From a virus (Duplodnaviria; Caudoviricetes), in the IMG/VR virus record IMGVR_UViG_3300042508_000526: a stretch of 64,000 bases of DNA. One strand, 5' to 3'. The notes under the pieces were generated by a model. The model was not told the origin of the DNA, did not search any database, and saw only the letters and a list, made by a program, of their open reading frames with translations. This document shows positions 49,987 through 58,392 of this stretch, piece by piece (within the stretch, counting starts at the first letter, position 1; each line of letters opens with the position of its first letter). The position numbers and the translations under genes are program-made.

Positions 49987-50223
49987 CTACAGTTCGCAAT
50001 CGGTCGTCGCGGCGTGTTCGTCAAGGTTGAACGCTGCTTTAAACGTATCAAATGTCTTGTCAACACGAATGCGCGTCATTACTGCAACACCAATTAAAGC
50101 ATTTACAATTTCATCAATGTCAATGTCGTCTTTTTCTAGTATGCGCTCTACAAGCAGATCAAGATCATCTGCCGTGTTGTAGATATTTGTAATGTCCGTC
50201 TCTAATTGAAATCTATCAGCCAT
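49987..50223 (-). CDS. Small hypothetical protein
   Basis: Start MADRF at 50223 (GAGG SD). Confidence 0.65.
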   Translation of the reverse strand: MADRFQLETDITNIYNTADDLDLLVERILEKDDIDIDEIVNALIGVAVMTRIRVDKTFDTFKAAFNLDEHAATTDCEL

Positions 50224-50265
50224 GATTAACCTCAAAAATAACGTAGCCCGTCGTCAGCCTCCGAA

Positions 50266-50408
50266 TTGACCGGGCGGGAATTGCACCCGCTATGTACCTC
50301 ACCACCACGCTGTGTATATCGCCGCGTCCGGCTAGGTCAAGCACGGGGCTGTTGGGTACCGGCACACCAAAGTGCCGCTTTAGTCGCTGTCACTAAAGAG
50401 CCGATCAA
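50266..50408 (-). ncRNA. 143-nt tRNA-like RNA with oversized variable region
   Basis: UUGAUCGG/CCGGUCAA 8-bp terminal stem; CUUUAGU/ACUAAAG hairpin; CGGCAC-UUUGGU-GUGCCG hairpin; GUACC/GGUAC-closed insert of about 65-70 nt; T-arm GCGGG-UGCAAUU-CCCGC. Fills most of an ORF-free gap. Confidence 0.6.
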
Positions 50409-50412
50409 AATG

Positions 50413-50676
50413 TTATTTTGTTCTCTCCAGCAGCGCAAGAAGCGTGTCAACATCTTTGCGCCAACCGTGTTGATCCAACCAAAACGCAACTCGATCAATC
50501 GCCTCCCGCTCCTCGTCCGTGAGCGTGGCGTCCATCGTCACCGTCACGTTCCCGTCGCACACTGACAGCGTAGCGTCTTGATCGGCGAGGCGGCGGATGG
50601 CCTCGCGGTGCTTCTCTAATTCTTCCGCCAGTAATTTGTTCTCTGTGCGGAGATTTGTAAGTTCGCAGTCAGTCAT
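50413..50676 (-). CDS. Conserved phage hypothetical protein
   Basis: LADQDATLSVCDGNVTVTMDATLTDEEREAI motif. Confidence 0.7.
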   Translation of the reverse strand: MTDCELTNLRTENKLLAEELEKHREAIRRLADQDATLSVCDGNVTVTMDATLTDEEREAIDRVAFWLDQHGWRKDVDTLLALLERTK

Positions 50677-51223: not shown

Positions 51224-51294
51224 ATGCCCGACTAGGATTCGAACCTAGACAAAGGGAACCAAAATCCCTTGTGCTACCGTTACACCATCGGGCA
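51224..51294 (-). tRNA. tRNA-Gln (anticodon UUG), CCA not encoded
   Basis: TGCCCGA/TCGGGCA acceptor, D-arm TGGTGTAACGGTAGCAC, AGGGA-TTTTGGT-TCCCT, CTAGG-TTCGAAT-CCTAG. Confidence 0.95.
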
Positions 51295-57122: not shown

Positions 57123-57929
57123 TTAACTCCTCGCGAGGTTGTTCACCCAGCGTGTTTTGATATGTTTAGTGCCTGTTGGGTACGCAAATATACTTTTGCG
57201 CTGCGCAACATTGGCCGGCTGATTTGCGCCATTGCAAAGGCGGCACTTGTTGCATTGAATCAGTTTGTTTATTTGTTCGTTTTGATGCGGGCATAAAACT
57301 TCGTTTGCCGCGGGACCGTCAACGCCTACACGATAGTGGCGCCAGCCAAGCGCCGCTGCACGGGGCATATCCTCGACGCGGTGCACGCTGGCCATGTAGT
57401 ACGGCCGATAGGCCTGATACTCGGGTTTCATCCATTGCTCGGTGAAACCGGTGTAGTTGCGACGCGATACGGTAACAAGTCGTTCCACAATTTCAAGCGG
57501 AATCAAAACCGGATCTCCGTAGGCGCCAAAGCGTACGCCCTTTGCCGCCACAATTCTGTCGTGGCGGTCTGGGTCGTAGTCCGGGTAGTTTCCGTTCTTG
57601 TAAGCGTTCCAGACCATCCGCGGCGCTTGATGCAGCTTGACGTAGCAAACCTGCACGAGCTTGCAGTCGCCGCAGACCAGCCGGTGCAAACCGCCGGCTC
57701 GGGCCTCTGTCGGCTTGAGCTTGTCCGCAAACAGCCAAACCTGACACGTGTCGCCCGTTTTGCGGTTGGTAGAGGTAAACGTCATCAGGATCACAATCTG
57801 GCTGTCAGCGTCGCTGGCGCCCTCTGGGGCCCAAGGACTGCGGCCGCGGTACAGCACACAGCCCGAAACTGTCTCCTGCCGAAGTTTGCGTTTTTTACGG
57901 GCTTTTTGCGCTTTTTTCGTGATCGTCAT
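57123..57929 (-). CDS. GP88-like Cys-rich phage protein (radical-SAM-like fold suspected)
   Basis: TNRKTG..Q, CGDC...CYV, VRFGAYGDP, TGFTEQW, MASV, CP...C.KC.LC; start MTITKK at 57929 (AGGA SD). Confidence 0.6.
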   Translation of the reverse strand: MTITKKAQKARKKRKLRQETVSGCVLYRGRSPWAPEGASDADSQIVILMTFTSTNRKTGDTCQVWLFADKLKPTEARAGGLHRLVCGDCKLVQVCYVKLHQAPRMVWNAYKNGNYPDYDPDRHDRIVAAKGVRFGAYGDPVLIPLEIVERLVTVSRRNYTGFTEQWMKPEYQAYRPYYMASVHRVEDMPRAAALGWRHYRVGVDGPAANEVLCPHQNEQINKLIQCNKCRLCNGANQPANVAQRKSIFAYPTGTKHIKTRWVNNLARS

Positions 57930-57949
57930 TGTCCTATCTAAAATCAGCG

Positions 57950-58345
57950 ACATTGGGGGGTAAAATGACCCCAAAATCTGTCGCAAATCGTTGAGGCCAC
58001 ATGACTTACGCTGCGCGCTTTACGCAAATTTTGTCCGATTTATGCGGACCTAGTGTAGGCTTCGCCTACAAGGTAGTTCTTTCTTAGAATTTTTTATTGG
58101 TAGCAGATGATCGGGGGCTGTTTGATTAGGCAGTTAAATACTGCCTTTTCAAATAGCGCCCCAATACGTTGTAATAAAGACCCCAACAGCCGAATTGCAC
58201 GGCTACACCACAGGGCATGAACCTTTAGTGACACGCGTTTGGGGTGACCAGTCTGTTTTCTGCGGAGTTCGGTAACGCAGCACGTGGAACAGACAAGTGA
58301 GTCCAGCTTTACTGGTCAAGAGGCTGCTGGACAAGCACTGGATAT
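57950..58345 (-). ncRNA. Highly structured ~400-nt intergenic region containing a tRNA-like minihelix
   Basis: GTCCAGC/GCTGGAC stem whose loop pairs with downstream CTGGTCA; acceptor-like stem plus AGCCG-TGCAATT-CGGCT (58180-58245); long rod hairpin (about 58108-58167); TGTAGGC-GAA-GCCTACA; GTCCG/CGGAC; GGGGT/ACCCC. Confidence 0.5.
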
Positions 58346-58346
58346 C

Positions 58347-58392
58347 AAAAAAAAAGACAACGGTAGGGGCGGGTAATTAAACCCGCCCCTAC
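58347..58392 (-). terminator. Intrinsic terminator
   Basis: Perfect 12-bp stem gtaggggcgggt / acccgcccctac, 6-nt loop, 9-U tract 7 nt downstream on the minus strand; just after the stop at 58409. Confidence 0.8.

Follow-up and report, generated by a model that had tools for sequence, protein, structure and literature searches.

We describe E1, a tRNA-shaped RNA element on the minus strand (50408..50266) of a 64,000-nt stretch of viral DNA (Duplodnaviria; Caudoviricetes; IMG/VR record IMGVR_UViG_3300042508_000526). This stretch, called the window throughout, comes from an uncultured jumbo phage of lake water, ~200 kb in size. The structure of E1 is under selection. E1 is one member of a family of phage RNAs that appears to be undescribed, in which a tRNA-like frame is kept while the insert within it differs between phage lineages, and it lacks defining features of tRNA, selenocysteine tRNA (tRNA-Sec), allo-tRNA, Y RNA and transfer-messenger RNA (tmRNA). 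The explanation that we favour, with moderate confidence, is that E1 is a non-decoding tRNA mimic that is cut out like a tRNA, with a frame that docks on the tRNA-handling machinery and an insert that is lineage-specific.

Fold and conservation of E1

E1 comprises 143 nt when an eighth terminal pair is counted, and spans 50407..50267 (-) in the version with a 7-bp terminal stem. It occupies most of a 188-nt gap between the open reading frame (ORF) at 50413-50676 (-) and the ORF starting at 50224/50235 (-), on the strand that carries nearly all long ORFs of the window. A preliminary description, based on the letters of the window and a list of its ORFs, had placed the element at this position and on this strand, and had drawn its fold by eye. 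For the 143-nt sequence, ViennaRNA returned the same structure as both the minimum-free-energy and the centroid fold. The folding energy was -60.6 kcal/mol (z = -2.84; one of 200 shuffles was equally stable), and the opposite (plus) strand was unremarkable (z = -1.44).

From 5' to 3', all on the minus strand, the fold begins with an acceptor-like terminal stem of 7-8 bp, of which the 5' strand, (U)UGAUCGG (50401..50408), pairs with 50266-50273. The linker CU (50399-50400) precedes a D-like arm (50378..50398) with the 7-bp stem CUUUAGU/ACUAAAG and the loop GACAGCG at 50385-50391. Next come an anticodon-like hairpin, CGGCAC-UUUGGU-GUGCCG (50360..50377), and a 66-nt domain (50294..50359) that is closed by GUACC/GGUAC, contains the internal loops CAACA, ACCUA and GAUAUA, and ends in the tip GCCG-GACG-CGGC. 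The linker AUA (50291-50293) separates this domain from the T-like arm GCGGG-UGCAAUU-CCCGC (50274..50290), which abuts the 3' strand of the acceptor. The T-like arm retains U54, C56, A58 and G53-C61 of the tRNA T-arm, with a G at position 55. By eye, we ruled out that the CAACA/GA internal loop forms a K-turn, since a C stands where the G-A pair needs a G. A coding role of the minus-strand ORF 50216-50365 was likewise rejected by eye: compared with locus L011 (see below), 7 of ~10 codon changes are non-synonymous and the start codon is lost. Pfam and PHROGs searches with 20 neighbouring ORFs gave nothing informative about E1.

Close variants of E1 were gathered by flanking-protein searches, DNA patterns and exact-protein look-ups. 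They are L011 (= L012 = L062; contig G007, 205 kb, complete), L059, L093 and L096, besides L107, which is more diverged. Between the window and L011, E1 differs by 16 substitutions: eight make up four compensatory pairs, two are G-U/A-U alternations, five are unpaired and one gives a C-A mismatch. Under random placement of 16 substitutions, the probability of at least four compensatory pairs is 1.5e-5, and that of at most one broken pair is 0.0013. Across the five window-type variants, 99.6% of the pair cells are standard pairs. Both partners changed in five pairs, which are spread over the D, anticodon-like, tip and T helices; slid-partner controls gave no such pair.

The D-like arm has one compensatory pair (U-A to C-G), the tip helix of the 66-nt domain has two, and the T-like arm has changed from G-C to A-U in L096. 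In the 6-bp stem of the anticodon-like hairpin, the closing C-G does not vary, and the pair beside it covaries (A-U, G-U, G-C). A C-G/G-C flip is found in the 66-nt domain (alignment columns 80:121), and L107 has an A-U to G-C compensation in the base helix of this domain. The acceptor-like stem shows a U-G/U-A alternation, and one bulge position is free to vary (C, A or G). None of the differences among the five window-type variants fall in the D-loop, the hairpin loop or the internal loops of the 66-nt domain; in L107 the hairpin loop is UUUAGU and one internal loop has also changed. Covariation in homologues, on which the preliminary description had made its reading depend, is thus present. 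Among stretches of at least 150 nt, E1 is also the best conserved between the window and the complete 205-kb G007, with 89.9% identity compared with 65-76% (at most 75.5%) for genes.

A covariance model built from E1, named R1, scores E1 at 182 bits. A search with R1 of five other complete ~200-kb relatives found no E1 copy. Contigs from four lake-water runs carried an identical E1 sequence and no new variants, and a metagenome scan gave one copy identical to L011 and one further match (L063), which we treated as chance because it folds no better than shuffles (z = -0.12).

The GACAGCG/UGCAAUU family and its genomic setting

Public collections were searched by exact patterns that specified nothing but the two loop strings, D and T, and the distance between them; this returned 33 viral loci. 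Members were then retained on the basis of a 5-bp T-stem, an abutting acceptor stem and the right offset, together with R1 scores. This gave seven further types of 144-165 nt besides E1, all from uncultured phages: two tandem copies in L105, and one each in L112, L123, L128, L130 and L141. The family overall spans 140-165 nt. All members have in common the D-loop GACAGCG (GACAGUG once) closed by U-A, the T-loop UGCAAUU, C8, a linker that starts with C, and the stem spacing. The acceptor sequences all differ yet pair (77/80 cells, the pair -1:73 included); A3-U70 and G7-C66 are invariant, and all other acceptor positions covary. The T stems are paired in 50/50 cells and the D stems in 49/50, with sequences that differ between types. 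The window copy has the full set of family features, namely the acceptor, the C linker, GACAGYG, the UGCAAUU T-arm, A3-U70 and G7-C66.

The insert between the D-arm and the T-arm is 87-118 nt long and has no 7-mers in common between types, and no anticodon arm is conserved across the family. The anticodon-like hairpin and the variable domain of ~70 nt, which the preliminary description had taken for tRNA parts, are therefore this lineage's version of the insert.

The D-arm sequence that members share outside the search pattern is an argument for their being real. R1 was used for one alignment (A4), which was left out of the statistics because it drew in true tRNAs and missed three members. Fifteen pattern matches in genome contigs were dismissed as chance, having no covariance-model score or no paired stems. 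The usable patterns found no family member in cultured phages or GTDB genomes, and E1 and three other members had no blastn match among cultured phages. A 37-nt D-arm query (E <= 10) found in cultured phages only chance matches inside coding genes, and in the searchable literature the motif strings occur only as coincidences in unrelated papers.

Every family member sits in a gap between same-strand ORFs, and the surroundings often include tRNA genes on the strand of the element. In L105 (7764-8328, -), from an unrelated uncultured phage, tRNA-Lys(UUU), two different tandem members (copies a and b) and tRNA-Tyr(GUA) follow one another on the same strand, with spacers of ~11-60 nt. E1 begins 1-3 nt 3' of tRNA-Gln in L107, lies 366 nt after tRNA-Gln in L096, and 0.8-0.95 kb after it in G007 and the window. 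In L130, tRNA-Gln and tRNA-Asp are located downstream of the member.

E1 itself stands in a tRNA slot. The related 205-kb phage G003 (L024) carries tRNA-Gln, an ORF, a zinc-finger-like ORF and an 87-amino-acid ORF in the same order as the window, and the next element there, in place of E1, is a 78-nt tRNA(CAU). This tRNA and E1 have a common leader, AAAAUAACAU plus 1 nt, and a common trailer, UCGGAGGCUGACG, and their acceptor stems are in register. The trailer is present alone, with no tRNA-like element, in L090, and neither is present in L088. In the window the trailer, UUCGGAGGCUGACG (50252..50265, -), lies outside the tRNA-like fold and follows every window-type E1 copy without change. Because each genome has it only once, we rejected it as a repeated promoter motif. 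A strain variant diverges exactly 3' of it, marking a recombination boundary.

Several further features of these loci were recorded. The motif (U)UCGGAGGCUGACG, of 13-14 nt, is found at 50252-50265 (-) in the window, 3329-3342 in L024 and 2783-2795 in L090; it holds a perfect GGAGG, and no conserved start codon follows it. The tRNA(CAU) of L024 (3249-3331) is unusual: it has either the mismatch C1-U72 or, in an 8-bp stem, one at 2:71, its D-stem of 5 bp carries a 9-nt loop, and ARAGORN puts its anticodon at position 38. A homing-endonuclease-type gene adjoins some E1 copies (T5orf172/MUG113 in L093). In the unrelated L123, L128 and L141, AUG stands before the element and CAC or CAA after it, and nine terminal pairs are possible; in L128, UG and the first A of the element form the stop codon of the upstream ORF. 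Relatives of the window phage carry a tRNA cluster of Lys, Leu, Val, Ile, Glu and Leu (G007, L068-L078, 5531-10269; L001; L103), the last gene of which is a phage-encoded tmRNA; its tag ends in APALAA. Paralogues of the 87-amino-acid ORF next to E1 lie inside this cluster.

Comparison with tRNAs and tRNA-like RNAs

A true tRNA lies 0.8 kb upstream of E1 in the window. This tRNA-Gln(UUG) (51224..51294, -) was called by ARAGORN and by Rfam (RF00005, 62 bits), and its loop UUUUGGU has one U more than the E1 loop UUUGGU. The preliminary description had rightly pointed out this one-base difference, and also that CCA is not encoded at E1. As it expected, E1 was not called: on the window, ARAGORN and Rfam reported the tRNA-Gln only. 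ARAGORN still made no call with lowered thresholds and introns allowed, or on edited versions of E1 in which the 66-nt domain was deleted or shortened or a U was added to the loop. Rfam at E <= 10 over 50150-50500 gave noise only, with no tRNA or tRNA-Sec match, and when applied to E1, the 58-kb region of the window and six family loci (gathering threshold and E <= 10) it reported true tRNAs only. No standard Rfam family, a simpler account that the preliminary description had considered, explains the element.

R1 aligns real tRNAs from related phages over their full length (tRNA-Leu(UAA), 27.6 bits; tRNA(CAU), 18.9 bits; tRNA-Gln, 17.1 bits), and the frame of E1 is therefore tRNA-shaped. Class II tRNA-Leu is the best foreign match of the model. 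The canonical 7-bp acceptor on a 5-bp T-stem with a 7-nt T-loop is present, both in the fold and through family covariation in the two stems. Instead of the canonical 5-bp anticodon stem and 7-nt loop (U33, purine 37), E1 has 6 bp and the 6-nt UUUGGU, and in place of the canonical elbow (G18 G19, U55 C56, U8) all family members have GACAGCG, UGCAAUU (G55) and C8.

E1 resembles class II tRNA and tRNA-Sec in its five-helix layout of acceptor, D, anticodon-like, extra and T arms, in its acceptor on a 5-bp T-stem with a possible eighth pair giving a 13-bp branch, in its long D and anticodon-like stems and in its place among tRNA genes. It differs from them in lacking a 7-nt anticodon loop and UCA, in its 7-nt D-loop without GG, in having G55 and C8 rather than U8, and in being missed by the Rfam tRNA models. 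Its extra domain measures 66 nt, compared with ~20 nt at most, and other family members have no anticodon arm altogether. The preliminary description had read the 8/5 arrangement as tRNA-Sec architecture. The 13-bp branch has gained some support, in that the pair -1:73 is possible in 7/8 types (G-C, C-G, A-U or U-A); U(-1)/A73 is also found around the ordinary tRNA(CAU) of L024. An identity as tRNA-Sec, however, was not supported, given the absence of UCA and of a 7-nt loop, a D-arm of 7 bp and 7 nt rather than 6 and 4, and no Rfam match at E <= 10. Allo-tRNAs have a 12-bp branch that is split 8/4 or 9/3 (Mukai et al. 2017, PMC5389517), a split that does not occur here, the T-stem being 5 bp in every family member.

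The bacterial and phage Y RNAs YrlA and Yrn1 carry a tRNA-like domain (Chen et al. 2014, PMC4201824). Yrn1 has been modelled with a 6-nt 'anticodon' loop, and YrlA is a substrate of RNase P and of CCA addition in one species (PMC4201824). Like the E1 family, Y RNAs are non-coding, are derived from tRNA or mimic it, and combine D- and T-like arms with another module, and some occur in phages. However, YrlA ends in its Ro-binding stem and has an 'acceptor' that is loop-closed, whereas E1 ends at the acceptor, and Y RNAs have tRNA-like T-loops, whereas E1 has the loop UGCAAUU and no Rfam match. Y RNAs are also bound by a Ro60 (TROVE) protein encoded beside them; there was no TROVE match in G007, G003 or G008, in a search whose positive controls were detected, and TROVE/Ro60, CCA-adding enzyme and RtcB were all absent from the related complete genomes.

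With tmRNA, of which relatives carry a true copy, E1 shares the acceptor/T-arm frame and a large insert instead of an anticodon arm. Unlike tmRNA, it has an invariant A3-U70 and no G3-U70, its 143 nt are far below tmRNA size, no conserved tag frame is visible by eye between the inserts of the window and L011, and ARAGORN calls no tmRNA. The tRNA gene cluster of T4 contains RNA C and RNA D (species 1 and 2), which are processed together with the tRNAs. The function of these small stable RNAs is still unknown (PMC9697503). They come from a cultured coliphage, whereas the E1 family comes from uncultured phages only, and we liken the two by description alone.

Candidate functions of E1

From the fold, the conservation pattern and the family comparison, we infer that E1 would be a tRNA mimic built from two modules. 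The first would be the tRNA frame, consisting of the 7-8 bp acceptor on its 5-bp T-stem, UGCAAUU, the GACAGCG D-arm, C8, A3-U70 and G7-C66. The second would be the insert of 87-118 nt, which replaces the anticodon and variable arms and differs per phage lineage; in the lineage of the window it would consist of the 6-bp hairpin with the loop UUUGGU and the 66-nt irregular hairpin. E1 would share a minus-strand transcript with its neighbours and be released from it as tRNAs are, by RNase P at its 5' side and by tRNA 3'-end trimming, to yield a stable small RNA. The fixed D-loop and T-loop probably form an elbow contact: the G-C of the D-loop can pair with G55-C56 of the T-loop, and the lone D-loop variant (C to U) retains a G-U pair with G55. 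One common tRNA-binding partner would recognise the frame, and the insert would carry a lineage-specific activity. Candidates for this partner are host factors of tRNA processing, modification or translation and, alternatively, a defence nuclease that targets tRNAs, in which case E1 would serve as a decoy. A decoy role against tRNA-cleaving defence nucleases is attractive because of the phage tRNAs and such defences that are already known. Of the options raised in the preliminary description, the tRNA mimic is supported and now extends to a family, and a decoy or an RNA in a tRNA-processed shell would fit this modular family best. The frameshift or decoding role that it built on the UUUGGU loop is unlikely, because the hairpin and the 66-nt domain are a lineage-specific insert.

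Several observations weigh against a non-decoding tRNA mimic that is excised like a tRNA. Four of the seven other types (L112, L123, L128 and L141) have no tRNA gene in the fetched locus, and the link to tRNA arrays is therefore frequent and not universal. No gene or protein family is common to the neighbourhoods of at least three family types, and no partner protein was identified there. The E1 sequence was found in 24 lake-water DNA runs, with no RNA run among them. Family members were picked partly by demanding paired stems, with an estimated ~0.03 false members among 30 pattern hits. The evidence for the acceptor stem of this copy consists of one U-A/U-G alternation and the family comparison, and the trailer can build an alternative closing helix with 50396-50401. 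When the trailer is included, folding favours this UCGGCU/GGCUGA closure, together with the small hairpin CCGR-UCAAU-UCGG, by ~3.5 kcal/mol.

An unlikely alternative is that E1 acts only in cis, as punctuation, with RNase P and RNase Z cutting there to separate and stabilise the flanking mRNAs. The intergenic position inside a same-strand run of small genes agrees with such a role, as do the conserved trailer directly 3' of E1 and the fact that the slot holds a tRNA, E1 or nothing in related phages. We also looked for a promoter-like or terminator-like site belonging to E1 itself and found none. RNase P, however, needs only an acceptor/T minihelix, and yet the D-loop, hairpin and internal loops are invariant in the five window-type variants, the helices are maintained by compensation, and conservation across the family extends to the D-loop and to specific acceptor pairs. 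Two tandem copies between two tRNAs, as in L105, would moreover be redundant.

It appears improbable that E1 is a working aberrant tRNA, whether a Gln-like tRNA reading CAA, an ochre suppressor in L107, or a frameshifting tRNA with a 6- or 8-nt loop. Other members retain the frame without an anticodon arm at that place, so that an anticodon cannot be what the conserved function relies on. The loop UUUGGU does equal that of tRNA-Gln minus one U, the stem begins with U1-A72 and G2-C71 as in phage tRNA-Gln, and the UUUAGU of L107 corresponds to the classical Gln-to-ochre anticodon change. Opening the closing C-G would give a 5-bp arm with the 8-nt loop CUUUGGUG, but this pair is invariant and the next one covaries as part of a 6-bp stem. 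The tRNA slot and the resemblance of the invariant A3-U70 and G7-C66 to identity elements also speak for a tRNA. Against it stand the missing G18 G19, the presence of G55 and C8, the 66-nt extra domain, and the failure of tRNA calling even after in-silico repair. The long ORFs across the window are open under table 11, and therefore no sign of recoding was seen.

We are similarly doubtful that E1 acts by pairing with a second element, E2, in a two-site contact like that of a tRNA on a T-box leader, a role that would not exclude the others. E2 is a minihelix with the same T-loop (58245..58180, -), located in a 400-nt structured leader and in the non-coding stretch 57990-58350, upstream of the gene at 57123-57986 (-). 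Its hairpin AGCCG-UGCAAUU-CGGCU is stacked on the 7-bp stem CCCCAA(A)C/GUUGGGG, and the 360 nt around it fold with z = -3.8. E2 was rejected as a family member: it lacks both the D-loop signature and A3, and R1 scores it at only 3 bits. Within E2, UGUCACUAAAG and GGCUGUUGGG, separated by 31 nt, are exact complements of CUUUAGUGACA and CCCAACAGCC of E1, which are also 31 nt apart, and this is the only pair of complementary blocks of at least 10 nt with exactly equal spacing in the window. E1 and E2 are also the window's only 5-bp hairpins with the loop TGCAATT. A shuffled window nevertheless gives, about once, two complementary blocks whose spacings agree to within 3 nt, and helices of E1 partly bury both of its segments. 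The complete relatives G003 and G007 lack E2 and ~200 nt around it; G007 has E1, and the pairing therefore cannot be a general function. That E1 is a decaying tRNA gene broken by insertion is scarcely credible, since the tRNA slot, the silence of the prediction tools and the T5orf172/MUG113 gene beside the L093 copy are outweighed by compensatory changes in every helix class, insert included, by the highest nucleotide conservation of the region and by the same frame being kept in unrelated phages.

Taking the non-decoding tRNA mimic further, we tentatively propose, as a possibility well short of established, a modular class of phage RNAs in which a universal tRNA-like handle would provide processing, stability and delivery to one tRNA-binding protein of the host or of a defence system, and an exchangeable cargo of 90-120 nt would provide an activity particular to each phage lineage. 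The cargo would, for example, inhibit tRNA-cleaving defence nucleases or lure them away as a decoy, or serve as a guide or sponge RNA, and in the phage studied here it may additionally pair at two sites with the second T-loop-bearing RNA 8 kb away. The recurrence of the E1 frame means that structured phage RNAs of a recurrent class escape tRNA finders and Rfam; the D-loop GACAGCG, the T-loop UGCAAUU, A3-U70, G7-C66 and C8 provide a search signature for them. Phage tRNA genes are now viewed as weapons against tRNA-cleaving host defences (PMC10264068, PMC13096335, PMC13056530). A family that retains only the enzyme-gripped parts of a tRNA, with the decoding half swapped, would be a new player in that conflict or, alternatively, a natural 'tRNA scaffold' for other RNA functions.

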